A DNA stretch of 49,621 nucleotides, filler included, from Cladosporium halotolerans (Eukaryota), in assembly GCF_011745625.1 (NCBI RefSeq). It is 2 parts of 2 records of this genome, joined end to end, with 100 filler letters (N's around TTAATTAATTAA, not from the genome) between each part and the next. Parts side by side here need not be neighbours in the genome. Positions count along the whole stretch, not along the records: positions 24,915 to 49,621 come from NW_027191540.1; 1 more part is not named here. One strand, given 5' to 3'. Shown piece by piece: positions 8,286-48,941 of this stretch (positions are counted from its first letter, which is position 1; each line of letters begins with the position of its first letter). The position numbers and the translations under genes are program-made. The notes under the pieces were generated by a model. That model was not told the origin of the DNA and did not search any database. It saw only the letters and a list, made by a program, of their open reading frames with translations.

Positions 8286-11200
8286 CGATAAGGCCCCAAG
8301 TTGAGCGTCAACGATAAGTGGCAGCCCAAGTGAAGACTTGCTAAAATGTCTCTGTTCAATGCATTCGAAGAAGACGTCGCGGTCCGTTATATGCCGTCCT
8401 AAGCGAATCCCTTGATGTTTTTCGGATGTGCACGCCCAGCTGTAGCCATTTTACATGCAGATTAAGGGAAAAGCGAGTTCTGGGCGAGGCGGATGCGGCT
8501 GGATTGTAGGATAAGTTGGACCTTGCCGCTCGCTGATTTGCCACCATGACAGCAAAGCTGACATGAGAGGGAACTTTACCTTCGGAGTTCCGTATCACGC
8601 GATGCTTCGGATATTCACCTCCACTAATGGCTTCTGAGGAGTATTCGGCCCCACTAATCCTCCTAGTATATAAGCCTAATCACTACGGAAACCTATATGA
8701 TTGATTTGATTTGATATTCTGTTCACCCGGTGTAGCTCACTTACGGGTCCATGCAGGCTGTCACTATGTATGCTATTAAGGAGGGAACCCGTGGCCGTGG
8801 CCCGGGTGAAAACTCCTTCTTCTCTCGATGGATGGCCATTGCCCTCCCGCCAGTGAGTCTACGATACAGTAAGACGTAGCTGCGCGCCTTAAACGCGCTT
8901 CAGCACTCGCCATCATCCTCATCCACATACGTCCCCGGCCTTCGTCCCCGTCACCTTGGTTCTACATCGTCCGATCTCCTCGCCAAGGAGAACTGGGCGA
9001 GGATGTTACGCCGTAGGAACCACTTGGTCACCGCACGTAGGCCTGCCTCAGTTGACAGCGATTTTGTGTAGTCGGTCGTCTTTGCTTCTGCTAGCATCTC
9101 TGCCCTTCTTATCGTGTGCGCAGGACAAAATAAAATGACTCGTGTTGGAGTCTGTCGCGGCCAGCCGCAGCCGCAATCTGGTTTCGAGTATCCGGGTACG
9201 CGCCTCCGGCATAGGTAGTCGTTCAGACCGACGTGCTCGGTCCTGAGTAGCGTTGCAACTGTACTCTCGGCCCTGGTTAAATTCGCCTTCGTCCGTGGTC
9301 CCCGAGTCCACGTCGCACGCGCTGCAACGGCTAGGCTGCTGTCCTTCGCCGAGACGCACGTGTTTCCTGCTGGTACCTGGCCCACCTGGCTTTCCAAGCC
9401 TCTTCGAGCTCTTTCGTCGCAGCTGTCCTGTTCCCGCAACGCCTGGTCGGGCTCGATTGCTGTCGGATCGATTTGACTCTTGCTCGAAATTGGTCGGTGT
9501 GTCTTGTCGGAATGTTGCCTTTCGTCCGGAAGCGGCGCTGAGCCCTTTCATCCGTAGCCTTGCGGGCCTCTTCCACAGCCTGGTCGCCCGGACAGCCTTC
9601 CGTTCTATGAACATGGTTGACCGCTAGCATTCCGAGGTGGAGGTTCAAGGGTGCAAGACTCGCCTCGTGTTCCAGCGTTGGACATTTGTCGTGTTGTATG
9701 CGCCTGTGATGGTTCTGAGGCACTTGTTCTGTACTGTCTGTGGTGGATAGATCAGTGTTTCGGTTGGCTCGTTCATCTCCAAGCGAAAACCACACCGAGC
9801 AGCCATAGGAGAGTACTGGACGGACGACAGCAGCGTAGATCTGACTTGCCTTGGCAAACGTAGCTTCCCACGTGCCTTGGTCAATCGGCTAATTGACGCC
9901 ATGTGTGCCGCCGCCTATGCTGCCGTCAGGTTGACGTGAGGACCCCACCTGAGCTTTGAGTCTAGGTGGGTTCCGAGGATTCTCATAACTGGCACTGGCC
10001 CGCCTTGGAGTTTGGGTATCCGTACGGTCGCCTGCGTGTTGAACTTCTTGGGGCGGCGAGTGAAATGCATCAGCTGGTACTTCTCGGGCGCGAAGGTCGC
10101 GCCGTGTGTGCGTGCCCAGGCCACACACTTCTCATTGGCGCTTTCCAGAACTCGACAGTTCGCTTCCGTGCTTCTGCTAAACGTGAGTATGTTGGTGTCG
10201 TCCACGAAGCCGATCGCGGTCATTGCTCCGGCGTTGAGCTGCGGGAGGAGGGTGGAAGCGAAGAAGAGAAAGGGGATCGGTGATAGTGTTGAGCCCTGGG
10301 GAATACCTGATGTTGTGGATCGGACCCTATCTTCGTATGTGCCTAGCGTAAGGGTCGTTGTCCGACCGGTCAAGAAGGAGCGGATGTAGCTGGTTACCCA
10401 CTGCGGTATCCCCGCGTTCCGGATATTGTGAACCAGCCTCTCGCGAGAAACATTGTCGAACACTCCAGAGATGTCCAGGCTGAGCATGCTCGCCATCAAA
10501 GTGGGATCGTTCGCCCGTACCGTCTGGATCTGCTCGGTGAGCATTTCTAGCGCAGTGATGGTCGATCGTCCCGGCCGTACACCCATCTGTGTGACTGGCA
10601 GCAAGTTGTGTTCTTCCGCCAACGCTGACATCCGGCGGGCACCGATCTTATCGAGCACCTTCCCGAGCGTGTTGAGCAGAGCTATAGGTCTGTATGCTTT
10701 CGCGACACCATATGAGGGCCTCTGTGGCTTCCTCAAGGCTACCGTTCTGGAATGGCGGAAGGGCGTTGGGTGGTAAGATCCCTGCAAGCAGTCTTGGAAT
10801 AGCTCGGCTAAAGGTTCCGCGAGTATATCTCTGCATCCGCGCAGGAAGCGGTTGGGTATACTGTCCGGCCCTGAGGCCTTGTCTGGCGCGATTCTCTTTA
10901 GCATGTCTCTGATCTTGTCCGCCGTGACCTCCTGGCTCATCGAGAGCTCGGGCGGGTAACTATAGCCCTCGATGTCGGTGAGATCTGCCCTCACCGGTGG
11001 CGGAAAGAAGTGTTCTGCGAGCACGTTGGCTTTTGCTTCGTTTGAGCTGTGGTACGCGCCATCTTTGTCTTTTATCGGTGGGAACTGAGGTGGCGCCGGC
11101 GGCTGTTGGGCTGTCGTTCGTGCCCACTTTGTCAACCGCCACATCTTTGCCGGATCACGCATGATATCGGCTACGGTTCGTCTCCAAGCCAGCGTGCTCT

Positions 11201-11673
11201 CCCTCTTGATCTGCTGTTTCATCTCGTTTGCCGCCTGGCGGTAGATGACGTAGGCCTTATATGTGCCGTGAGCCACCCACTCCCGTCGGGCTCGTCGAGC
11301 CCGCCTGACGCTCTTTATCAGGAAACCATCCGCGACACAATCCCCCTGGCCAGACCTTCTCGATGGATCGGTACTGGTGGGAGTGACTTGAGTCGCCCAG
11401 GCACTCCTTGGTTTAGCTCTCCTAATCGATGCTCCAGGTGCTCGCGCACCTGCTCCCAGTCCGCCTTGCGCCACTGAGGTTGTCCTGTGGGCTCCGCTCG
11501 CTGTGGAACTGATGCCCCGATCGACGTGATGATCGGTATATGGTCGGAGTCCGAGTCTAATTCCTCGCATGGTCGGCATTGCAGCACTTGCTTTATTATC
11601 CCTGGCGTCGCAAAGGACAGGTCCAGCGTGCTCATGCTGCTGCCTGATCTCCACGTCACGGTACCTTGCGGCT

Positions 11674-19241: not shown

Positions 19242-22200
19242 TCACTCTTCTCCGTCTCTCAGTGTCACTTCCCCCTCATCCAATATTTGATCCAGTCGTT
19301 CAATGTCCCAGTGGTCATCCCTGTTCTCTTCTATGGTCATTGGCCTGCCCACTTCTGTGTTTCCGATGAACCGGAGGACTTCTTTAGCGGCTTCGTCTCT
19401 AAACAGGCTCTCCAGGTCTGCTCGGTCTCGCCTCGCGCTGATACAGATCTTGTCCGCACGCAGCCGCCGCAGCATAGAGTCTCGCTGCCTTCGCCACTTC
19501 CGACAATGCAGCAAGAGGTGGCCAACTGTTTGATCGCTCCCGCCACACCACCAGCATTGCGCATCTACTACTTTGCCGATTCTGAACAGGTGGGCTCCTG
19601 TGATCGCATGGCCAGACTTGAGCTGCAGGTATCGAGCTGCAACCGACTTCTTCGCGTTTGCGATGTCTTCGTCGATCTTGGCTTTTGGTCTCCACCTTGT
19701 CTCGATGGCTTGCTTCACGTACGACAGTGAGGCTGATCGCACTTCTTTGGGCTGCTGTTTTGCTGCTCGCCGCGCCGAAGCGTTTGCTATTTCGTACCCT
19801 TTCACATCTTCGTCGTTTGAGAGCCATGTCAGAATCACTCGACCACCTGCGTCTTCGACCATCTGTGCTTGTTTCCTGATGCTAGTGACAAGTGGTAGGG
19901 CCCACTGTCCTCTGCCTGAAATAGCGACCAGCGCAGCTCGCGACTCTGTCACAATCTCGGCGAGGTTGTGGTCCGTTTTCCGGAGTGTCGGAAGGAGATT
20001 TCTCGTGACGATACCAATTGCAAACAATGCAGCATCGTCTGTTGTGGTGTGCTTGCCCGATGATGACACTCTCGTCTTCCACTCATATTGCTCTCTCCAT
20101 GCCACTCCCACACCAAAGCTCACGTCCTGATTCGTGCTTACAAACAGTGTTAGCTGACTCGAGTGGTCGGCTTGCATCCTTTGAGGCATGCTTGAGTAAC
20201 CTTGGGTTCGAACCACCGGGATTGCCGTGAGTGGGTCTGCTCTGCGGAGCACCTGGAATCCGTACTCGGTGTCGTAGCTGACGTGTCTCACTATTTGCTG
20301 TGCAAGTCTACTTCCGAACGATCGGTGAGTCTTTTCTGGTCTCGTCCAACCGATACTTGACGGCTGTCCTGTCGCTCCCTCGTGACGGTGGAGCTCACCA
20401 AGGCGGAAGTTGGCTGGCAGGAGCTGGTGCGTGGGGTGGTCCCCGTCCGCACTGAGCGCCCGCACCGCAAACTTGGTCTGACGGCGGTCGAGGAGGTCTT
20501 GGGCATTGGGCAAGCACGACGCTTTCTGTAGGAATGCTCGAGGAGTCGATCTCAGCAGCCCTGTGATGGCTCTTGCTTGACTATTCAGCAGTAGCTGCAC
20601 TTTACGCAATCGGTCTTTTTTGGCCCCTCCACCAGATCTCCGATCCGTACATGGCCACGGAGGTCACTGCGGCCACAACCACCCTCCGCATCAGGTTTAC
20701 GGACAAGCCGCCATTACTCCTGCTGAGACTGGAGACCCGCTGTAAAGCCCCCTTGGCACTAGCCAGCCTATTCTCGAAGTGTGTCTTGAACGACAGTCTT
20801 GGATCAAGCCAGAATCCGAGCCATCTGGTCGCCTCCTGCTTGATGGTAAAAGTCTGCTGTCCGATGCGGACGGCTACGGACTTTGCCGCTTGTGAGATCT
20901 TGCGACTTCTGCTGAAGATGAGCACTTCGGTCTTGCTGACTTCAAATTCGACTTTGTTGTGCGATCCCCATTGTATTGCATCTTTGGCGATCGCGTCGAG
21001 CTGCCTTGTGCCGTCGTCCAGCTCGTGACATTCTGCCACCAGCCCAACGTCGTCTACGAATGATATGGCTTGGAGCCTCGGGTGTTTCTCCTCCAGCCAC
21101 TGGAACATTTCGCTAATGGACAGGATGAACAGTATTGGCGATATTGGCGAACCTTGCGGCAGGCCTGCTTGGATGCTGCGGGTTTCGCCCATCCTTTCGT
21201 CAATCACCAACACGGCCCTTCGGTCTGACAAGAACGAGTCCACCCAACGCACGATGTTTCCCGCAATACCGACTTGTATCATCCGCGATATTAATTTCTG
21301 TTTGTTGACTCTGTCAAAAGCGCCTTTGACGTCCAGGAGCAGCGCGAGTGCAACTCGCTTCTGGCTCCACGCATTCTCGACTTTCGCAACGAGCTGGGCC
21401 ACCGCATCTGACGTTCCCCTGCTCCGTCTGCAGCCGAACTGCCCTCGATGGAAGATGTCGTTTGTTTCGCAGTACGATGCGATCCAATTTGCAACCGCCC
21501 TCTCTACCACTTTTCCAAGACAGTTGAGCAGACTGATGACCCGATACGCTTTCGCGACGCTGTACGTGGGTTTGCCCTGCTTGCGCAGGAGGATACCCTT
21601 CGCGGTCTTCCACGTGCAGGGATGGTACCCAGTCCGGATGCACCCTTGCACAAGAGCTACCACACGGTCTTCTGCCCACCGCCACAGCAGTCTCAGCGCT
21701 TTAAACCCGATTCCGTCTATGCCCGGGGCTTTGTTGACGGCCTGTGTGAACAGAGCTCCGCAGACCTGTTCTGCACTCACGCCAGCACTCGTATCTGGGA
21801 CCTGGATGTCCTCGTCTTCTACGGCTTGGGGCGGGAATGCCTGCGCCATGAATATCTCTTCCTTCTCCTCCGCTGTCGCTGCGATCTTTTCCGGCTGGCC
21901 GTCGATGCCCGCCATCTTGATCGCTGGTGTGTATGACGGTGTCTGCGGCTTGGTATACTTGAGCGCTTGCCAGCATCTTGCAGGGTCAGCTGCCATTTCC
22001 GAGCTTTCGTCGGCTGAGAGGACACCCTCAAGGAAGCGCTCCCAGGCCAGTCTCTTGGCTTTCCGAACGTAGGTGTAGTAGCCGTTCCTCACCCTGCGGT
22101 ACTCGTCAAAGCTGATACGGCCGTCATTGTGAGCACGTCTAGCGCTTGCGAATAGCTTTCTCTGCTGCTTGACCTCGTCAGTCCACCAACGCTTTGATCG

Positions 22201-23124
22201 CGCCCTCGGCGCTTTGCCAGCGGCATGCCTGTCAAGGACGGCTCGCAGGCTGTCTTGTAACCATTGCGCTTCCGCTTCGAGCTCAGCCGGTGACGTGGCC
22301 CACGCATCGATCAGCTCTCTTCCTTTGCTAAGCTCCAGCCACTTTTTGCTTGCGGCTTCAAGTGCTTGCTCGTCTGCACACAGCCGATCGACATCCCAAT
22401 TCCGCACGACTTCCATCTTCCCTCCAAAATAGGCCACATTGAGAGGCGTCCACTCAAACGCGATCATCTCGTGGTCAGATGTCGTGGCTAATGACTCGTC
22501 TATCTCCCAGGTGACCAGTGCTCCGACCCCGCAAGTACTCAGGGTCGGGTCGATTACCGACTGGCAGTTCTTCCCACATCTCGTGGGCTGGTGGTCGTCG
22601 TTGTTGATGATGAGCCCGTGTCTCTCGATTAATCGCTCCACAGTCCCGGCGTGCTGCCTTCCCGACACCCACGAGTCCCATGCGGGACTACGGGCGTTGA
22701 AGTCACCAGCGAGGATGGTCCTGCCTTCGATCAGTCGCGACATGTCCATGTGGTCAATCGTGTGTCCGCCACCCTGGACCCTGGCTCTATTGTAGATATT
22801 GATAAGCCTAGTCTTTCGAATCTTCTTGCGGTTCTTTGTCTCCCAGACGTCCAAGCACTGCACGTGGGGGCTATCCACCAGGTCCGTCCTTTCCTCGAAC
22901 ACGTATCGGTTCAGCGCCTCATTTCGAATTGCTAGTGCTACTCTCGTGTCTTTCTTTGCACGTTCTGGCCACCGGATTTGAAAGCCCGGATGGCCGATCT
23001 CGTGTTTCCTTCCCACGTACGGCTCTTGCAGGCACGCCACTTCCGCTCCTCTTTCAATGGCCGCCTCCAGTGCGGCTATCGTTGACACAACCGTGCCGTT
23101 GCAGTTATGTTGTATCACTATCAT
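19242..23124 (-). pseudogene. LINE ORF2 polyprotein with a single +1 frameshift
   Basis: IQHNCN, CLQEPY, AGDFNA, SDHEMI; YRVISLLNCLGK, GLPQGSPISP, FVDD; CWWC..H..C. Six T at 20616-20621 where five would give WWRGQKDRLRKVQ. Confidence 0.9.
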
Positions 23125-24708
23125 CGTCAACAGACATGTGCGTCGGGTCGCTGGGTTCGAAGATCTGGGCCGCCTTTGCCACCATCTTGGTCCTCGGACG
23201 GAGTTCTCTTGTCGGTCGAGGCGATCGTTCGTTCTGCGATAGTGGTTCTGGTGTGCTCATCTCTGAAGATATTGGGATCACCTGTGTCGGCATGATTTGA
23301 TCCAGGTCTCTGAGTGTCATCTCCATTTCCATCTGATCTGCGTCCATTGTGAGGTCATCCTTTTCTGCTGCCGGTTCCATCGCTGGTGGGCTGCTGCGCA
23401 TCTCGGCCTCCATCTGCTGGCGTGTCTGTCGGCTCGATCTCTTTTCGGGGCACCGCGGCGATGTCGCCGGGTGTGGTTCTTTGCAGTTCGCACACTTTGC
23501 CGGGTGGTGCTCACACGGCCCTGATCTCTTGCTACAGCCTTCGGCGGTGCACTCGTGCTTGCTCCCTTCATGGTCACCTGCACATACAAAGCACTGTGGG
23601 TCTTTGGTGCACTGGCCGAAGTGGTCTCGACCGCAGCAGCGCATACACATACCGCCATCTCCTCGTTCCCAGAATCTCTCTACCTCGTGGCGTCTGCCTC
23701 CGAAGAACAATCCCTTTGCTAGGATCACATCCGCAGTCCTCTTGCTTTTCACGGTCAAGACCAGTGTCGACCTCTTGATGCTTCCACTGTCGTAGCGTTC
23801 GGCCAGGGTATCGCCTTTGATCCAACGTGGTGCGAAAGGCAAGTGCTCACCTGTCATCAGTTCGATCTCCTCTCGTGCTACCTCTAGTCCGTCTTCGCTC
23901 ATGTAGCGGTCCAGCGCAACGCCGTGGACCCTTAGCTTGAGCCATCTTTCGGTCTTTTCCATATAGGCGACCTCGGGGTCTAACTTCTTCACCGCGGCCA
24001 TCACGACCTGTGCGAAGTTAAGTAGCTCGTCTGCACATGCGTTCTCGCTTATCACACCTGTCAAGTTGCCCTTGTCCGTGTACCCCATTTTGGTCAGTCT
24101 TACCGTCACATGGGCTCTCGCGTGGGCGAGAGCTTTGTTCACTTCGAACATAATGTCTCTAGGGTCGCAACTATGCTTTTGTACATTTCTGACGAAGAGG
24201 ACTCGGCGCTGGTCGCGCGGATGTTCCTTCAGCTTTTTCTTACCATTTGTGACTGTGGTCCATCCATTGTTTGCTCCCGATTCCGTAATATTGGCCCAGC
24301 TAGGCTGTGTCACTCGCGCCGGTGGTGGGCGTGTTTGACTGTTGGATGTCTACTCCGTACCTCTGAACAAAGCGCCATCCTTTCGCGGGGCTGGGATGAC
24401 TCCCGTCTGCTGCTTGAGTGTATGCAACACTGTCATCACCTCGTTCATGAGTTGCTTGACTTGAATTCGTTCCTTCTTCATTTCTTCCACTTCTGCTCAG
24501 AAAGATCGCACATCGTCCGAACAGTCGACAGTGGCAACGGGCTCATTGGGTACTCGCGAAGCTCTCTCAATGAGATCTCCGATCGCTTGTAGGAGAGCAT
24601 TGTCTTGTATGCCGAAAGCAGAGTCTCGATCTGTCTTGCGCTTATTCGGGCTCAATGGTCTTGCGGTTTGCGTCTGCTGTTCCTCCCAGTTCTGCGATTC
24701 TGCCCCTT
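23105..24708 (-). pseudogene. LINE ORF1 (gag-like, Cys/His knuckles)
   Basis: ORF 23105-24313 with CMRCCGRDHFGQC, CFVCAGDHEGSKHEC and CANCKEPHPATSPRC. Coding-like sequence continues to ~24708 past one stop and a frameshift. Confidence 0.85.
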
Positions 24709-24814: not shown

Positions 24815-24914
24815 NNNNNNNNNNNNNNNNNNNNNNNNNNNNNNNNNNNNNNNNNNNNTTAATTAATTAANNNNNNNNNNNNNNNNNNNNNNNNNNNNNN
24901 NNNNNNNNNNNNNN
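24815..24914. other. Artificial scaffold/contig linker (44 N + TTAATTAATTAA + 44 N)
   Basis: Exactly 100 bp and symmetric; the 12-mer places stop codons in all six frames. Confidence 0.95.
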
Positions 24915-37442: not shown

Positions 37443-40400
37443 ACCGTGACAAGAGCCTGGAGGTGGATGGCAACCACACCGCCTCCAAATCACTTCGAAG
37501 TGCATCTCAATCATGACAGCCTCTCAGGTGTTGCCTTCAAAGTAACTCCTTCATCTAGCCGTAGTGTCTGTAGCGATGCTGAGCTAACACATCAGGAGCA
37601 TCACTGAGACCTATCAGATTGACATATCACGGCAAGCCCAACGACTCTGACAGGGCGGATGAGATTCTTGTGTGCATCGACGGCGTGCGCAGTGAGGCTG
37701 GCGCTCGGCCCTCGAGCGCTCAATGCATTATTCTCGCGATTCACCTCGTATGCCTAGAATCTTCGCAGTCAAAGGGGTATGCTTTTGCTCTTGCGCCCCA
37801 GCGCTCTGCGACCTGCCGGGAGCAATGACACCCACATGCTCGTCGCGACGAGAACCGCCAAGTCAGCCTCACACTCGACCAAGTCGAAGGTGTTGACGCG
37901 GCGGCATCACTTCTACAAGGGCAAACGATACGATTCAACGGTAACACATACGCCTGACCCATCTTGTGGGCGCCTTACTGCGACTACTGGCTTTGGCCTT
38001 GAAATCTTCCACACCGTAAAGGCGTCGATGGCATGCTGCCGTCGGGCAGACGTCAGAGCCCTCCGCGATCGACTCGTTCCTGCTAACAAAGATACAGTGA
38101 TATTTCCCATCACCAGAGAAGCCCGTCCATCAAAACAGCGGCCCAGATCGAGTTGTCCCTGGGCGCAAGCCACTCCTTCATGTTCACTCGGCCGTGACGC
38201 CTTCTCCAGCACACTCTTCCATCCACAAGTAACCTCGACGATCAACACACCTCGTCGAGAGTGCCGTCAGGACGAAACACGCCATAATCGCGACAAGGGT
38301 CGACGCCATTGATGAAGCGCCGGCTTCACGATGAGCGACCCGATCTGCCTAGGACCGTTACAGCGCTGCAACACTATCTCTTTATGTTGGGGAACGGAAA
38401 AAGAGGGTTGAACGGAGGATGCTTGGGGCCAAGAGCACGAAGAGCGAGCGCTGGTGGATACTATGGCTGGACCGCAAGGGGTGTCGGGAAAGGAACACAC
38501 AGACTGGAAACTCTTACTCTGAGCACCGTCAGATTGAAAATCGCTATGGGAACGAATCACTCATCTCACTGGGCGGTGGGAAGCATAGATTAGCGAGCTT
38601 TGCTGGAAGAAACTTGCGTCTTGCTGGGCCAGTACCGGAGTCGTAGCATAGAGGCATTCAAGATAGACATGGCATGAAAAAGGCGGGAGGGCATTTCTAC
38701 CTACGTTGATATGTCCAGGTCTTCCTTCTAATAACTCCAATCCGCAGGATTGCCCTCATCTTTGATCCTGCTCCATAATTCTTCAGATAAGTCTGTGTGA
38801 AGGATCGCAGCTTTTATTTGTGTCCCTTCAGGCGCACATATCTTCAAAGCCCTGCTCTTGCAATGAATGGAGAACTGTACACTGCATCGAGATCCAGCCC
38901 TCCCGCCTGTGTTCCATTGTCGTAGACGTTTTCCGGCTTTTTCTTTGTTGAGAGGCGTCACTGTCCACATACGCTTTGTTTGAAGCCGTGAGCGTCGGGA
39001 GCATGGAATGAAGTAAGCGCGATCGGCAAGGGATCAAGGAGTCGAGTGAGGTGGTGTACGGTGTTGTCGGCTGTCGGCCGAGTAGTCTCGCATCCGTTGG
39101 GAAGGTATAGCCGATGGGTTCGTTACGAATGCTGATCTGCGCGTGATTAGTAAGAGACACGATGTTGGACCATGTTTTACTGACGTCGTCTATGATTGAT
39201 TCTCTCAGTTAGCGAAGAAGGAGCATGACAGCGGCATTAAGTCGTCTCCAGGGACGGTTACCCAGGTTGGACATTGTTAATTATGTCGAGTCATAGGCAT
39301 CCGGAAGTACTGTTTCAAAATGCAGTAGTGCACCACTCATGATAGTACGACTGACTGCTATCAAGCCTTCACAATGAAAAAAGGCAATTATGAGGTTTCT
39401 CTTTGCGCACATGGAAACGGAAGTACTCGATACATCTTCTCGACGTAGCACCGTACGCAAGCGTTCCAAGGATTGCAATTTGACTGGGATGATTGCAGAA
39501 TAGTCGAGAATCGAACAGCAGGGGGTGGTACGCAACACGTGATCAATTGCTAACTATCCATGGTATAAAAGGTGTGTCGCACCAGACCGGGTAGTCACTC
39601 GATCAAGAGTGTTGTTCTCTTGGTCTAGTGGCTACCATCTACAGATTAAACTTTAAAGGGGACCACAGTGGCTGGGAAGACCACTTGATATGTCACCTCC
39701 CAATATGTTGTGGTTCCCACATTTCTTTTTGCCTTTGCACACAGTGTCACAAGATGAATACAATCTACACGCTAAGCAGACATCCATTTTTTGCGTTACT
39801 GCGGTGGCTAGCGATCCTCTGTTACCGATGTTTGTCTTGTGCATGTCTTGATATATGTCATTGAGGTGGAGATTGGGCCTAAGTGGGTCGACGAGCTCCT
39901 GGGTTCGAATCGGCGCTGCGGCAAGCATCTTTTGGGAGCGGCGGCGGCTCCCATGCACTTTGTCCCTGGCCTCCAATACTCCCTTTCCACTCTGAACTGC
40001 GCTCGTCTACTGTGCGCTCCTTATCGCACCCTCACCTTCACGCCCAGATCGTTGTATTTTGCATTGGAACGAACCCCTGAGAGTCTACGAATGCCGGAGC
40101 TTCGTCGAGGAGTTGTGGGAGCTACAGCAACCGCCAGAAGAGGCTTTGATCATTCCACGAAAGGAAGTAACGTATAATCGAGAGCGTCGGCTTCAAGGAC
40201 CAATCTTTGTCCTACTCCATTGTTATCGCGAGGGGAAGCGGTTAAGCGTTGTCGAGTGTTAGCACCTCTATTATAACTGGTGCTCGACAGCCGCTTTGGA
40301 CGCGACTGCAGCAAGCTCGTACACGTAATGCAAGGGCCACGGAGATTGATCGCTAGATATCGAGGATCACCATAATTATGGACATTGGGCATCGAAATGT

Positions 40401-45229: not shown

Positions 45230-47300
45230 GGTGTGAGGCTGTTGTGTTGTGGTGTTGGCTGGAGGTATGGTTTTTTTGGTGCGAGTTGGCCTCGTGAGAG
45301 GCTTTGGGCGGGGAATTTTTGGCGGAGGCTCGCTTTCGGACGCCGAGGGGCAAATTTCACCAAGTCCGCTCGCTGGCTGGCGGGAAGATGGTGAGCAGCA
45401 ACCCAGGGCAGCCTTCACCTGATGCCTGCAACAGATGGATTAAACAGTCAGAATGGTTCAAAGTGTGCCTGCATTGAAAGTGTCTATAATATTCGCTATA
45501 TTGACGCCTTCCCCTTGCCCAAACCCGCTCTCCTCGCTTCTGCTCCAGCGACAGCCCTGATGAAGATGCAGAAGCAGCATCCAGTGAGCGATAAGTTTCT
45601 TTGTTGCCTCTGATCGCTCAGATCTTCCCGGTAGTATCGTAGAAGGAGAATCTTCCATGCAGAACCCCGGCAATGATGACGGTCCAGCCCCAGGGTCTTT
45701 GCATGCAGCCGACCCACCCTTGCAAGATGGTCAGCACGCCACGTGGGTCTGTCAAAGCTTGTCTGAACTTCACATTTTCTCCAGTGTCAACGTTGCCTTC
45801 AGCCTGTGGTATCTTTCCTGCTCCTTGCGATTATTCTTTTCGAACCTCCGATCCAACCTGCTTATCCCGGGGATGGGGCAGCCCCAGCTCGCTGCCTGCC
45901 TTTTGTTCATGCTGTCTGCTTGAGCCTCGGGCGAGATATTGCGGAATCTCTTCAGCAGTCAAGCTGCACCGCTAAATTTTCCGAGTTTGAAGATGGCAAA
46001 TGGCACACAGAGGCATGTCTGACTGTGCCAGCCACTTGAAGCAATGCTGCCATCGCTGCCGCCAGCCTTGCCAGAGTGGTCGCCTGCAAGGAGGGTCTTG
46101 CTCGCTACCGGAGCGACGTGGTCCTTTGTTGTGTCCGAAGCTGTGAAAGCGTGGTCCTCACAAAGCGATCGGCCTGCTGATCTTCTGAGACCCGTGGTGT
46201 CGACTTCTGCTCTTTTTCTTGCAAATGTGCAATGCCCTAAGTTCCCTGGAGGACGCTGGCTCCTCTCGGTGGTCGCAGCGGAGGGCAGGCAGCGAGTTGA
46301 GTCAAACCGGTACGCTTGCCAGTGATGAATGCATCCTCGCCCTTTGTTCTGACCCTGTTTCCTGATATTTCCCAGCTCTTCTGCTACTCCCACGACGCCT
46401 ATTGTCCTCGGTCTTGCGAGTGCTCCGTCCGGCCCCCTGATCCTTGCTGTCGCGCTGGTCTGCGCAAGCGATCAATCCAAGACCGGCTCCGAGCGCTTTG
46501 TTCTTCGAGGATCGGTAAAGACATGCCGTCGTGGAGCCTCCGCGCGAGCTCTTTGATAGCGTCTCTCGCACCAAAGACTTCGAGTGCTTGCTCGGGGGGT
46601 GCGTGTCTCTACCGGGGTCTTGACTGCCGGAGTGATTGGTGTCGGTGACGGATTCTTTCCGGGTGCGATCGGAGTGCAGTGCTCACAGGTATGCTCAATG
46701 TTGCCTGCTCGATACGCTGCGCCTCTGTCCGGATCTCTCTCGCGCATGCAGAATGGCGTCCTCGATCTGATCCGACGTGAAGCAAGGCCAGCCCATCAAG
46801 AAGAGTCTGTGGTCACAGAGCCCTTGTTCTCTTCCACACTCTGTGGTGAGCCCCCGACGGCTTTGGCTTGGTGTCGCTACCGTAGTTGCCTGCTCCACCT
46901 TGCACTACCTGACTCGGCGCTCCTCGGTGGACGCAAGCACGCTAAAAGGGGATGAAGATCTGTCATGGAAGCATAACTGTTTCAAGGTAAGTGTTTCTCT
47001 CATCCCGAGGTTTCTGAATGCTCGTTGTCGCGGCTGGTGGTGTGAAGTTGCTCGCGGAGCCCCTCACGGTCGCAAAGCCCTGCTGCCCACGCGGACCAGG
47101 TGTACGGCAATCACAATGCCATCAAGGCAGCACTAATGCAATGGTCGTACGCGCCTGCAAATGAATGGCATTGTTGCTAATGGCCATCTTGCACTTATCA
47201 GCTGTTCAAAACAATATTCCCCCGGCAATGGGAGGCGTGGCGAATTATCAGCCTTGCAACACGCCAAAATCAATCGCCCCGGCCCCGAATCGAACCCAGC

Positions 47301-47431
47301 AAAAAGAAATGTACTCCTTCTCGGAGCCCCTTTCGGGTTAATCTGTTTTTAAACCACTTGATTGACCACAAAGCGAGCGCGTTATCGTACTCACCTGGCA
47401 AGCCCGGGTGTGAGGTCGCAACCTCACACCC
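47301..47431 (-). ncRNA. Predicted structured small RNA, copy 1 (131 nt), family unknown
   Basis: TATATT starting at 47461 (-30); 5' hairpin GGGTGTGAGGT-TGCG-ACCTCACACCC; 3' AACCC-GAAA-GGG-GCTCC-GAGAA-GGAGT-ACATT; T5; B box GGTTCGATTC at 47287-47296. Confidence 0.65.
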
Positions 47432-47523
47432 GGCAGCCACCCGAACAAACAAATCAATATACCCACGACTGCGACGCCGACGTCACAAAAAGCAGCTGCC
47501 GCTCCCAGGATTTGAACCCCGGC

Positions 47524-47605
47524 AAAAAAGGGAATGTACTCTTTTTCGGAGCCCCTTGCGGGTTGATCGTATGCCACAAGGCTATGAGGTATGGACCTCA
47601 TAGCC
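47524..47605 (-). ncRNA. Predicted structured small RNA, copy 2 (82 nt, short form)
   Basis: TATATAA starting at 47635 (-30); hairpin GGCTATGAGGT-CCAT-ACCTCATAGCC; AACCC-GCAA-GGG-GCTC..GAGT-ACATT; T6; B box GGTTCAAATCC at 47508-47518. Confidence 0.65.
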
Positions 47606-47689
47606 AGCAGCCACCGGCAAAACCAATCTTATATACTCATGACTGCATCGCCGTCGTGCGTTGCCGACGTCAGGATTTGAACCCCGGCC

Positions 47690-47823
47690 AAAAATGAATG
47701 TACTCCTTCTCGGAGCCCCTTTCGGGTTGATATGTATTGTCAAGACCACTTGACAGACCACTTGACCGCACTCTAAGAGTACGTACCTTTGGGGGGCGGG
47801 TGTGAGGTCGCAACCTCACACCC
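47690..47823 (-). ncRNA. Predicted structured small RNA, copy 3 (134 nt)
   Basis: TATATTAA starting at 47853 (-30); same 5' hairpin and 3' module as copy 1; T5; B box GGTTCAAATCC at 47673-47683. Confidence 0.65.
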
Positions 47824-48104
47824 AAGCGACGTCACACGAAATAATTTAATATACTCTCAACTGTAGCTGGGCAACACAGGCACCTTACGACGTTCTTGCT
47901 CCCCCTCGGCGTACTTCACAGTCTGCTACTACCTCTCACTCGATCGATTCGTGAGCCGCGTTTCCAGCACCTCTTTTGCTGTCATCTTCACTCGTATTCC
48001 ATCTCACGCAACGGACTATCTCCCGCAGCGGCTGCCTTCGCCCTTGACCTATATCTGCTCCCTCGCGCCGCACCAGTCCTTTCTTCGTTTTCAGCACCGC
48101 CAGT

Positions 48105-48941
48105 ATGAGCGTCGAGATCGCAGACCTTCGCAGCTACCTTCGATCGCATTGCGAGGGCAACATGTCGCTGCGAGAGAGCATCGCCACTACCATGGACGAC
48201 GAGATCGCCTTCGCCGACGTACGGGTTGCTTCTATCTTCTCGCCCGATGAGCAGGGCATGGATTTCAACGCTGGCGCAGGCGACGCCTTCCACCTCGACG
48301 ACATCGAGGCGGCGATGCGCTTCCTCTGGGAGGAGTTCAACCATGGTACGACCATCGCCGCGAACGCCATGTATGCGTTCTTCATCAATCACACTCTGGA
48401 GCTGGACGCGCAAGAGCTCGTCACTATGGCTCGCGCACGCGACGGCACCCTTCTGTTCGGCGCAAGGCAGAGACCTTTGCCATACCACGAGCGATACGTG
48501 CTCAACCTCAAGATCGTACTGCACATAGGCGGATACGACGAGATCATCAACCCGCGCGAGACGATCAAAGCGCTCATCCACGTTCTCCCTGGCGTCCGAG
48601 AATGCTTCCCGAATCTCCGCGACGTATTGCTGCAGCTCGAGTGGCACCAGGCAGAAGAGGAGATCAGCTTGTTCCGCTCGCTGAAGCACGCGTTTACGGT
48701 CAACGAAAAACCGTTCACATTCTACTACTTCGAGCTGCTCAACGCCTTCCGCCGCCGAATGCCTCGCGACTTGAATAGCCGCTTCGCCAGCTACCACAAA
48801 GGTCGCAATATGCGCGTGCCGAAGGACATGGATGCAGTCAATCCATACAAGAGCGGGGCAGAGATACCGGGCGTTTCGGCCATGAGGATGATGCGACTGG
48901 ATACGGAGTACAAGAAAGCTGCTTGGGGGATGCCTTCGTAG
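48105..48941 (+). CDS. Hypothetical protein, 278 aa, no recognised domain
   Basis: Intronless ATG-to-TAG ORF with strong third-position C/G bias and a pyrimidine-rich leader; divergent from the RNA cluster. Confidence 0.75.
   Translation: MSVEIADLRSYLRSHCEGNMSLRESIATTMDDEIAFADVRVASIFSPDEQGMDFNAGAGDAFHLDDIEAAMRFLWEEFNHGTTIAANAMYAFFINHTLELDAQELVTMARARDGTLLFGARQRPLPYHERYVLNLKIVLHIGGYDEIINPRETIKALIHVLPGVRECFPNLRDVLLQLEWHQAEEEISLFRSLKHAFTVNEKPFTFYYFELLNAFRRRMPRDLNSRFASYHKGRNMRVPKDMDAVNPYKSGAEIPGVSAMRMMRLDTEYKKAAWGMPS

Follow-up and report, generated by a model that had tools for sequence, protein, structure and literature searches.

Three tandem units with polymerase III-type signals in Cladosporium halotolerans as probable members of an uncatalogued family of structured small RNAs

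Organization of the locus

Reading of a 49.6-kb window (the whole stretch of Cladosporium halotolerans DNA analyzed here) delineates three small structured RNA gene units on the minus strand, at 47301-47866. In each unit, a GTATAT element lies 30 nt upstream of a perfect 11-bp hairpin, and the 3′ part comprises AUYAACCC, a loop and GGG, a second hairpin and ACAUU, followed by a run of five or six T's (T5-6) and a B box. The features of the three units are listed below (all minus strand; lengths are counted through the end of the T-run and a slash marks a putative splice junction).

47846..47866 (-), upstream element of unit 1: CAGT at 47863-47860 and GTATATTAA, first T of TATAT at 47853
47690..47823 (-), predicted primary RNA of unit 1, 134 nt
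47823-47798 (-), 5′ hairpin of unit 1
47786-47785 (-), GT of the 5′ splice site-like AAG/GTACGT of unit 1
47786-47732 (-), A box-like segment (insert) of unit 1
47731-47697 (-), 3′ module of unit 1, with T5 at 47694-47690
47674..47683 (-), downstream B box of unit 1, GGTTCAAATC
47628..47645 (-), upstream element of unit 2: CAGT at 47645-47642 and GTATATAAG, first T at 47635
47524..47605 (-), predicted RNA of unit 2, 82 nt, a short form lacking both insert and A box
47605-47580 (-), 5′ hairpin of unit 2
from 47564 (-), 3′ module of unit 2, with ACATT at 47537-47533 and T6 at 47529-47524
47509..47518 (-), downstream B box of unit 2, GGTTCAAATC, with another T5 after it at 47491-47487
47454..47471 (-), upstream element of unit 3: CAGT at 47471-47468 and GTATATTGA, first T at 47461
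47301..47431 (-), predicted primary RNA of unit 3, 131 nt
47431-47406 (-), 5′ hairpin of unit 3
47394-47343 (-), insert of unit 3, CAG/GTGAGT...ACAG/, 52 nt
47342-47308 (-), 3′ module of unit 3, with T5 at 47305-47301
47287..47296 (-), downstream B box of unit 3, GGTTCGATTC

The tandem cluster of three units, each with a TATA element at -30, a hairpin, a T-run and a B box, had been proposed in the initial annotation, and all these elements were confirmed; measured by script, the first T of TATAT lies at -30 from the hairpin G in all three units (47853/47823, 47635/47605 and 47461/47431). The pattern of the 3′ module, GGGGCTCCGAGAAGGAGTACATT, searched with up to three mismatches allowed, has three matches in the window (with 0, 0 and 2 mismatches), against an expected count of 0.00 that was reached in none of 100 shuffles. 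The B box pattern GGTTCRANTC occurs four times (expected 0.83; a count of four was reached in 2 of 100 shuffles), and three of these occurrences lie 4-8 nt past the three T-runs. Perfect hairpins of at least 8 bp with 3-6-nt loops are found at six places in the window, three of which are the unit hairpins, each with 11 Watson-Crick pairs and a 4-nt loop (3/3). The folding z-scores of the three units are -4.8, -3.5 and -3.7.

Copies 1 and 3 have the same 26-nt hairpin and the same 32-nt module, whereas their inserts and spacers have diverged. The hairpin of copy 2 differs from theirs by two stem pairs in which both partners are replaced (G-C to C-G and G-C to A-T), the compensatory changes that had been pointed out before, and by all four bases of the loop.

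Homologous units near SLX9 in related fungi

Metagenome contigs were scanned by SLX9 alignment, which yielded 12 loci, and units within these loci were sought by a scan for a T-run plus B box motif and with two covariance models. Units are present in 2 of the 12 loci, with two tandem units in one (L005) and a single unit in the other (L006), always within 5 kb of SLX9; these three homologous units are new here and were detected solely via the T-run plus B box motif. The covariance models found no unit within 6 kb on either side of SLX9 in a further locus (L004), an exact-pattern scan of the metagenome contigs for the 3′ module returned 0 loci, and blastn with the whole intergenic region (45419-48104) as query produced no match in the 12 SLX9 loci at E ≤0.01.

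The 5′ hairpins of the L005 and L006 units consist of 10, 8 and 9 bp, all Watson-Crick, and are unlike those of the window in sequence; the hairpins of the two L005 paralogs are likewise unrelated in sequence, and five distinct 5′ hairpin sequences are found across the 6 units. The relatives retain AUUAACCC/AUAAACCC, ACAUU, the T5-6 run and the B box, and the folding z-scores of their whole units are just -1.2 to -1.6. The GNRA loop highlighted in the initial annotation is indeed present in the window copies but is not a feature of the family, UCAC and UUGAUC taking its place in the relatives. The middle of the unit, which had been described as variable, turned out to be no free-varying filler but an A box-bearing segment with splice site-like flanks, and in the relatives it contains a near-canonical A box.

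The covariance models also gave a weak lead in the window itself, on the plus strand, which is possibly a diverged fourth member of the family:

39564..39730 (+), possible diverged fourth member
39564-39571 (+), upstream TATAAAAG
39621-39631 (+), A box TGGTCTAGTGG, held in a long 5′ hairpin
thereafter (+), single-stranded CAGAUUAAAC, then a long 3′ hairpin
39719-39723 (+), ACATT, with T5 at 39726-39730 and a B box at 39902-39911

This candidate was matched at E 0.48 and E 0.18 by the two covariance models, as their sole non-seed match, and was not recovered in a covariance search with filters off. Its fold z-score is -5.7, and its A box shows one departure from the A box consensus TRGCNNAGTGG.

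Comparison with known RNA families and repeats

The RNA had been regarded as unrecognized, and it matches no catalogued family in our searches. None of the 4227 Rfam families reached its gathering score on the window, and, with the threshold relaxed to E 10, searches of 1501-, 151- and 96-nt stretches of the locus, as well as of the L005 units, gave noise alone. The gathering-level Rfam matches across the 12 SLX9 loci comprise 8 tRNAs, none of them at the units. ARAGORN detected 0 tRNAs in the window, where the Rfam tRNA model was also without a match, and the U6 model (RF00026) had no match at E up to 10 on the window stretches or the L005 units. The ACAGAGA box and the AGC triad occur in none of the units, in agreement with the earlier statement that U6 core and cloverleaf are lacking. 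No snoRNA model came near its gathering score and no UGAUGA/CUGA pair was found; ACAUU comes after a short perfect hairpin without a pocket. A literature search at the level of listings and abstract openings returned no description of such an RNA family.

The objection that the units could be a dispersed element (SINE or MITE) was likewise checked. The three matches in the 49.6 kb are all tandem, with no dispersed copies. In a relative represented by DNA contigs, the contigs break solely at the 32-nt repeat common to copies 1 and 3, and the depth of this repeat (27) is close to the sum of those of the two flanking contigs (16.8 + 10). The element is thus low-copy and not a SINE, given that the genome of this relative has about two copies of the 32-mer.

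Conservation of RNA structure

Covariation was assessed on a small, model-fitted alignment of 7 related sequences from three genomes, in which just 7 hairpin pairs are included. Between the two groups, MAFFT did not bring the 5′ hairpins into register; pairs were therefore counted on the model-fitted alignment and the hairpins of individual units by script. Paired cells make up 81.8% of 88, compared with 68.9 +/- 3.2 in shuffles (reached in 0/500), and changes on both sides are seen in 9 of the 13 pairs, compared with a shuffle mean of 4.3 (again reached in 0/500). Shifting the 3′ partners by 1-3 columns left no more than 46% of the cells paired and a score of 0.077 or below, against 0.388 unshifted.

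These comparisons indicate that the RNA structure is under selection, as had been proposed from the window; the conclusion rests on the homologs from two other genomes, which retain the pairing, together with copy 2. As judged by comparison of the units, selection preserves a perfect 5′ hairpin of any sequence, the 3-bp CCC/GGG hairpin, the second hairpin abutting ACAUU, and the single-stranded motifs (CAG)AUYAACCC and ACAUU.

Promoter and terminator signals

In the L005 and L006 units, the distance from the first T of TATAT to the hairpin is 29, 30 and 29 nt; across the 6 units it is thus fixed at 29-30 nt despite diverged spacer sequences, and GTATA is the sole invariant block in an upstream alignment of 7 sequences. 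A TATA element at a fixed distance in every unit is consistent with the suggestion that each copy has its own promoter. In one strain, the source of an RNA-library contig, TATGT replaces TATAT in both copies 2 and 3, a change that should weaken the TATA box. A T5 or T6 run lies 1-3 nt past ACATT in 6/6 units, and a B box 4-14 nt past the T-run is kept in all 6 units of the three genomes (GGTTCAACTC, GCGTTCGATTC and GGTTCGAATC in the relatives, 6-12 nt past the T-run). The A box of the L006 unit, TAGCCTAGTGG, fully matches the consensus TRGCNNAGTGG, and that of both L005 units, TAGTCTAGTGG, departs from it once. In the window, the A box of copies 1 and 3 is degenerate, agreeing at 6-7 of the 9 specified positions when counted by eye, and copy 2 has none. 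The A boxes of the relatives start at +46 to +48, farther from the transcription start than in the S. cerevisiae U6 gene SNR6.

The likeness to the SNR6 promoter layout, proposed from the window, is strengthened because the relatives have a near-canonical A box inside the unit. SNR6 has a TATA box at about -30 with a T-rich stretch behind it, an A block inside the gene, and an oligo-T terminator beyond which the B block lies; in the U6 gene of S. pombe, the B block is housed in an intron (PMC5855946). The units have TATA, oligo-T and B box in the same order as SNR6, those of the relatives also with a near-canonical A box in place, and their predicted RNA, like U6, would begin with a stem-loop and end in oligo-U. 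However, they are not U6, with AAC at the most AGC-like place, and their B box lies 4-14 nt past the terminator whereas that of SNR6 is far downstream. With tRNA genes they have in common A box/D-arm-like and B box/T-loop-like sequences and an oligo-T terminator, and fission yeast tRNA genes resemble them further in having an upstream TATA; they differ in that they have no cloverleaf and in that the terminator stands between the A and B boxes. The orphan Pol III genes RNA170/ZOD1 and snR52 of budding yeast produce small transcripts outside the classic set, of minor or unknown function; the units, unlike these, are multi-copy, tandem and conserved with covariation across species.

Given the Pol III signals, the compensating changes in two relatives and the lack of a catalogued match, the units probably encode a new small RNA. 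The explanation that we favor, and consider likely, is that the three are paralogous genes of a conserved, low-copy, uncatalogued RNA family of Cladosporium-like fungi, presumably transcribed by Pol III. We infer Pol III transcription from the signals described above: TFIIIB would bind GTATAT about 30 bp upstream, and TFIIIC would assist in SNR6 style via the internal A box and the B box just past the terminator. Transcription would start at the base of the 5′ hairpin and stop in the T5-6 run, giving primary RNAs of 82-141 nt that finish in oligo-U. The ends of the RNA could be stabilized by the hairpin and the U-tail, and a partner, either a protein or another RNA, might be engaged through the two single-stranded motifs that are conserved.

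A possible intron around the A box

The A box-bearing segment is 52-63 nt long, a typical length for a spliceosomal intron, and is flanked by mRNA-type splice-site consensus sequences, CAG/GTRNGT and YCAG/. Five of the 6 units contain an insert, and all five have a consensus 5′ splice site (GTACGT, GTGAGT or GTATGT) at 28-37 nt from the start; CAG stands at the 3′ junction in 4 of these 5, copy 1 having CAT. By eye, no YTRAY branch motif is apparent in the L005 inserts, and the motif is weak or absent overall. No spliced joint is seen in the three RNA-library contigs of the locus, which are of low depth and maybe DNA, and the linker of copy 2 aligns about equally well with the middle of the copy 3 insert. 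Tentatively, then, the segment could be an mRNA-type intron, at somewhat less than even chances, whose removal would leave a mature RNA of 75-82 nt, the form that copy 2 would, on the same tentative footing, encode directly. The CAT junction of copy 1, the lack of a branch motif in the L005 inserts and the alignment of the copy 2 linker speak against an intron, as does the fourth-member candidate, which retains CAGAUUAA without a 5′ splice site. The parallel in S. pombe U6 is a TFIIIC box within a segment bounded by spliceosomal signals (predicted in the units); the enclosed box, however, is the A box here and the B box there, and the units have weak or absent branch motifs and one copy without AG. 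If the A box does lie inside a spliceosomal intron, a non-spliceosomal Pol III RNA would need the spliceosome to mature.

A further reading, speculative and rather unlikely as a whole, is a lineage-specific Pol III RNA, possibly descended from U6, with the A box in a spliceosomal intron and copy 2 as a gene of the spliced form. It draws on the U6 promoter plan, the 5′ stem-loop, the U-tail and the location of the insert, and the units may resemble U6 in the order of motifs. Fungal U6 introns cluster in the region that matches the place of the insert.

Fungi are regarded as having a short and well-studied list of Pol III RNAs, namely tRNAs, 5S RNA, U6, 7SL and RNase P RNA plus a few orphans. 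To this list the units would add, in a very common mould genus, a multi-copy RNA that is conserved, covaries and has a U6-style promoter. If the intron is real, it would be the second independent case of a Pol III promoter box in an mRNA-type intron, after fission yeast U6. A promoter with a defined start and a T-run could also serve for guide RNA expression in Dothideomycetes.

Alternative explanations

The units could also represent genuine small RNAs that are released by processing of a longer Pol II transcript (a polycistron, or a host gene with the RNAs in its introns), with the Pol III boxes being incidental or tRNA relics; fungal snoRNA clusters yield small RNAs from polycistronic precursors or host-gene introns. 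RNA-library contigs from three studies cover the locus at a depth of 2.5-4 (47684-47888, 47419-47689 and 47808-47950+), and they cross promoters and inter-unit spacers and ignore the predicted RNA ends, as a longer precursor would require, although they could also represent DNA carry-over. In the same direction, every unit has CAG before it and its putative TATA opens with GTATAT, which in the two GTATGT copies of one strain becomes a perfect fungal 5′ splice-site hexamer, and CAG/GTRNGT junctions recur within units. However, the T5-6 run right after the last hairpin and the B box are kept in 6/6 units of three genomes, the A box of L006 is of full consensus, the distance from TATA to hairpin is fixed while the spacer has diverged, no C/D or H/ACA family matches, and the inter-unit exons would be just 6 nt. 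We consider this origin unlikely.

That no functional RNA is made, the units being decayed tRNA-derived duplicates kept as TFIIIC/TFIIIB sites (comparable to extra-TFIIIC sites) or neutral relics, appears improbable. Pieces resembling A box/D-arm and B box/T-arm flank the unit without a cloverleaf, and a tRNA gene lies a few kb away beside SLX9 in the relatives, both of which would fit such relics. Against them stand hairpins that remain perfectly paired despite replaced sequence (five distinct hairpins in 6 units; 9 of 13 pairs changed on both sides), and the identity of copies 1 and 3 in hairpin and module while spacers and inserts diverge; neither of these would be expected of neutral DNA or of a protein-binding site.

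Spliced-leader RNA genes, with a short 5′ exon up to the GT donor trans-spliced to mRNAs and the U-run as Sm site, are a very remote prospect: the tandem genes with individual promoters, the 5′ splice site 28-37 nt in (5/6 units) and the AUUUUUGG that follows the two hairpins in copy 1 would suit them, but the donor is missing in copy 2 and in the fourth-member candidate, the "exon" is not conserved among the paralogs of one genome (the L005 hairpins are unrelated), CAG stands at the matching 3′ junction as in cis-splicing, and two window copies out of three lack the A with which an Sm site opens. Translation would be hindered by a highly stable hairpin right at the 5′ end, and trans-splicing is not known to occur in fungi.

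Several other assignments were considered and rejected. tRNA genes with spliceosomal introns do not fit, there being no AG ahead of the T-arm-like piece and a T-run between the boxes; H/ACA or C/D snoRNAs are discounted for want of pockets or boxes, and membership in the U6 family by the negative Rfam result. A telomerase template is dismissed as well, AACCC alone being invariant, and paired. A gene on the plus strand would lack a terminator, and both the A and the B boxes belong to the minus strand. The ORF at 47988-48797(-) matches no family and was dropped as a putative host, the real gene apparently being the overlapping ORF at 48105-48941(+). The latter is DUF7730-like, as far as an atlas lead goes.

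The cluster in the window

The window is eukaryotic by content and encodes LINE-type endonuclease and reverse transcriptase ORFs, MEKK4-N, an S28 peptidase and IBR domains. Two long reverse transcriptase ORFs, 20602-23130 (minus strand; with an additional AP-endonuclease domain) and 9915-11654 (minus strand), are LINE-like retrotransposons judging by these domains. The window contains 88 N, the first at 24815. The cluster is located in the 2.7-kb gap between the SLX9 gene, whose protein has its best named relative in Cladosporium fusiforme (81% identity), and a diverging ORF:

47866 to 47287, minus strand: three head-to-tail units
One flank of the cluster, same strand: SLX9 gene (Pfam PF15341, E 1e-27)
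48105-48941, plus strand: diverging ORF on the other flank; near Ascomycota DUF7730 proteins in a language-model look-up, a lead only

All three units begin with CAGT, a few bases and (A/G)GTATAT, the first T of TATAT (47853, 47635 and 47461 in units 1, 2 and 3, minus strand) being separated by a measured offset of exactly 30 nt from the G (47823, 47605 and 47431) that opens a hairpin of 11 perfect base pairs closed by a 4-nt loop. The middle of each unit, 48-66 nt long in units 1 and 3 but 12 nt in unit 2, leads into the 3' module, AUYAA-CCC-GNRA-GGG and a second small hairpin abutting ACAUU; after it come T5 or T6 and, 4-8 nt beyond, the B box GGTTCRANTC. Counted from this G through the T-run, the predicted RNAs measure 134, 82 and 131 nt. 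In the whole window, a 23-nt core sequence from the 3' module has three matches at ≤3 mismatches (0.00 expected) and the B-box motif four (0.83 expected), three of them behind the T-runs of the units; hairpins with ≥8 bp of perfect pairing and a loop of 3-6 nt occur in six places, half of which are the unit hairpins. Copies 1 and 3 are identical across the 26-nt hairpin and a 32-nt part of the 3' module and have diverged in spacers and middles. The layout proposed in the initial annotation (order, 30-nt offset, 11-bp hairpins, 3' module, T-runs and B boxes) is thus borne out, and so are the two changes reported in the copy 2 stem, each compensated on the opposite strand.

The cluster has three occurrences of TGACGTCG, a near match to the CRE/ATF palindrome (47833-47826, 47670-47663 and 47485-47478, minus strand), upstream of the TATA element in units 2 and 3 and between TATA and hairpin in unit 1. 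A weak partial 3'-module match (GGGGCTCCG core; 18 nt, 78-83% to the three copies) at 47052-47069 (minus strand), 230 nt past unit 3, is either a relic or a chance match.

Across the entire window, Rfam yields no family at the gathering score and ARAGORN no tRNA, in agreement with the possible novelty originally suggested. Permissive Rfam scans of 1501-, 151- and 96-nt stretches return only noise, neither U6 nor tRNA, the best match, to a scaRNA model from Drosophila on the opposite strand, scoring 21 bits where 72 are required. At the level of titles and abstracts, no description of such a family was found in the literature.

Homologous units in related genomes

Searched as an exact pattern, the 3' module gave no match in metagenome contigs, and the neighbouring SLX9 gene was therefore used to reach relatives: an alignment of twenty SLX9 homologues retrieved 12 metagenome loci (SLX9 identity 64-73%). 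A blastn comparison of the window intergenic region with these loci found nothing; scanning for a B box behind a T-run picked out two of them, L005, with two tandem units, and L006, with one, 4.6-5 kb from SLX9. There, GGTATAT(A) has its first T 29-30 nt ahead of a perfect hairpin that differs in sequence from those of the window and from the others. A short linker ending in CAG, then GTACGT or GTATGT, a pyrimidine-rich stretch that contains no T4, and TAGTCTAGTGG or TAGCCTAGTGG at the A-box position follow, TAGCCTAGTGG matching the A-box consensus TRGCNNAGTGG throughout. Next come YCAG, AUUAACCC or AUAAACCC, a loop, GGG and a second hairpin, new in sequence, abutting ACAUU as in the window; the units end in T5-6, and the B box follows after 6-12 nt. 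Rfam detects nothing at these units, the only gathering-level matches in the 12 loci being tRNA genes beside SLX9. The family is low-copy and SLX9-linked in three Cladosporium-like genomes. The regions upstream of first units (window unit 1, L005 unit 1 and L006) share RTTGAKRGTATAT, and those upstream of following units (window units 2 and 3, L005 unit 2) share CAGTC..G..GTATAT, a likeness by rank which suggests that the tandem arrangement predates these species.

In relatives, a tRNA gene lies on the strand opposite to SLX9, 350-600 nt upstream of that gene; ARAGORN and Rfam find no counterpart to it in the window. It is a 73-nt tRNA-Arg(TCT) in four loci and a 91-92-nt form in three, the ARAGORN label of the latter, Pyl(CTA), probably being due to a contained intron:

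L001 2212-2284, L003 89-161, L008 1571-1643 and L009 1945-2017, minus strand: SLX9-side tRNA genes
L004 5566-5657, L005 5556-5646 and L011 921-1012, minus strand: SLX9-side tRNA genes

Selection on RNA structure

The 5' hairpins are fully Watson-Crick in all six units (11, 11 and 11 bp in the window; 10, 8 and 9 bp in L005 and L006) and represent five distinct sequences. Those of L005 unit 1 and L006 are one compensated pair apart, and in the last hairpin a C-G pair of one L005 unit is replaced by a compensated G-C pair in the other. Because the hairpins of the two groups resisted alignment with MAFFT, two covariance models were built. Pairs were counted on a model-fitted alignment of seven matches, with 7 of the 5'-hairpin pairs in the model: 81.8% of 88 cells form pairs, where shuffles give 68.9 ± 3.2 (0/500 as high), and 9 of 13 pairs show changes on both sides, against a shuffle mean of 4.3 (0/500). 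The covariation score is 0.388 versus 0.207, and ≤0.077 with the 3' partners slid by 1-3 columns. Despite an alignment of only seven related sequences that is itself fitted to the structure, the direction of the result clearly favors the selection on structure suggested at the outset; the hairpins of L005 and L006 are replaced in sequence yet still pair. The GNRA loop stressed in the initial annotation is not conserved, the relatives having UCAC and UUGAUC.

A candidate intron

The A-box-bearing segment opens with NAG/GTRNGT in five of six units and closes with CAG/, directly 5' of AUYAACCC, in four of these five. At 52-63 nt it is of the usual fungal intron size, and its excision in silico leaves 75-79-nt RNAs with the plan of the 82-nt unit 2. 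According to PMC5855946, fission-yeast U6 has its B block within an intron of the mRNA type, and up to four such introns occur in the U6 genes of fungi (after Canzler et al., 2016). The segment is possibly, rather than probably, an mRNA-type intron. Against this reading, the unit 1 junction is CAT, no YTRAY branch motif was seen by eye in the L005 inserts, a candidate fourth member (see below) keeps CAGAUUAA without a donor, the unit 2 linker aligns about equally well with the middle of the unit 3 insert, and contigs of the sequencing runs covering the locus contain no joint.

Copy number and sequencing runs

Among 24 listed public runs, 20 contain part of the stretch and 3 half or more; 6 are on record as RNA, and contigs of four runs were placed on the locus. 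In the DNA run X2, from a relative (8 differences in 751 nt), contigs assemble straight through the locus and break only at the 32-nt repeat common to copies 1 and 3. The depth of this repeat, 27, approximates the sum of the flanking contigs (16.8 + 10), so the module is present about twice in that genome, which rules out a dispersed SINE or MITE, the alternative against which the initial annotation had asked to be checked. Three contigs come from RNA libraries:

47684-47888: whole unit 1 and 65 nt upstream
47419-47689: whole unit 2 and both spacers
47808-47950+

With depths of 2.5-4, no joints, and promoters and spacers included, they give no support for separate small RNAs ending where predicted and fit DNA carry-over or a longer transcript just as well. 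In the strain of the second contig (run X16), units 2 and 3 both read TATGT where the window has TATAT. The change falls at homologous places (47632 and 47458) and turns GTATAT into the splice-donor-like GTATGT.

Proposed promoter and alternative origins

These signals, a TATA element at -30 with T-rich sequence behind it, an A box inside the unit, an oligo-T terminator and, beyond this, a B box, match those described for SNR6, the U6 gene of yeast (PMC5855946). The window units agree with the SNR6-like layout recognized at first, to which the relatives add a near-canonical internal A box, degenerate in window copies 1 and 3 and absent from copy 2. From these signals and the fact that three genomes keep them, we infer that the units are Pol III genes, and a conserved family of small-RNA genes, uncatalogued and with a Pol III promoter in the style of the U6 gene, is a credible reading of the sequences. 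The RNA product would begin with a hairpin kept by shape, not sequence, and end in oligo-U, end-protecting features typical of Pol III RNAs (U6, La/Lsm binding); the sequence-conserved parts, (CAG)AUYAACCC and ACAUU, would be the likely contact surface for a partner.

Processing from a Pol II precursor or host transcript would account for the RNA-library contigs and the GTATRT/CAG motifs but leaves unexplained why terminator, A box and B box are conserved, and appears unlikely. Still less probable are neutral or purely DNA-level tRNA relics, in which hairpins that are replaced yet perfectly paired have no explanation. Spliced-leader RNAs are very unlikely because the leader differs between paralogues and unit 2 lacks the donor. 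Descent of the family from U6 is only a lead, drawn from the motif order of U6; the permissive Rfam scans (151 and 96 nt) reject membership of U6 itself.

A possible fourth member

Searched over 110 kb on both strands, both covariance models return one non-seed match (E 0.18 and 0.48):

39585/39639-39730, features over 39564-39911, plus strand: candidate fourth member

It has TATAAAAG about 30 nt ahead of a long 5' hairpin that includes the A box TGGTCTAGTGG, a single-stranded CAGAUUAAAC, a long 3' hairpin closing immediately before ACAUUUCUUUUU, and a B box 170 nt farther downstream; the fold z-score is -5.7, and there is no 5' splice-site motif. The match is absent from the model search with filters off and is therefore only a lead to a possible diverged family member. 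Directly behind it, at 39748-39792 (plus strand), ACATCCATTTTTT, a weak model match (E 6.5), is followed by GCGGTGGCTAG, which resembles GGTGGCTGC just 5' of the hairpins in units 2 and 3; this stretch may be a decayed tandem unit.
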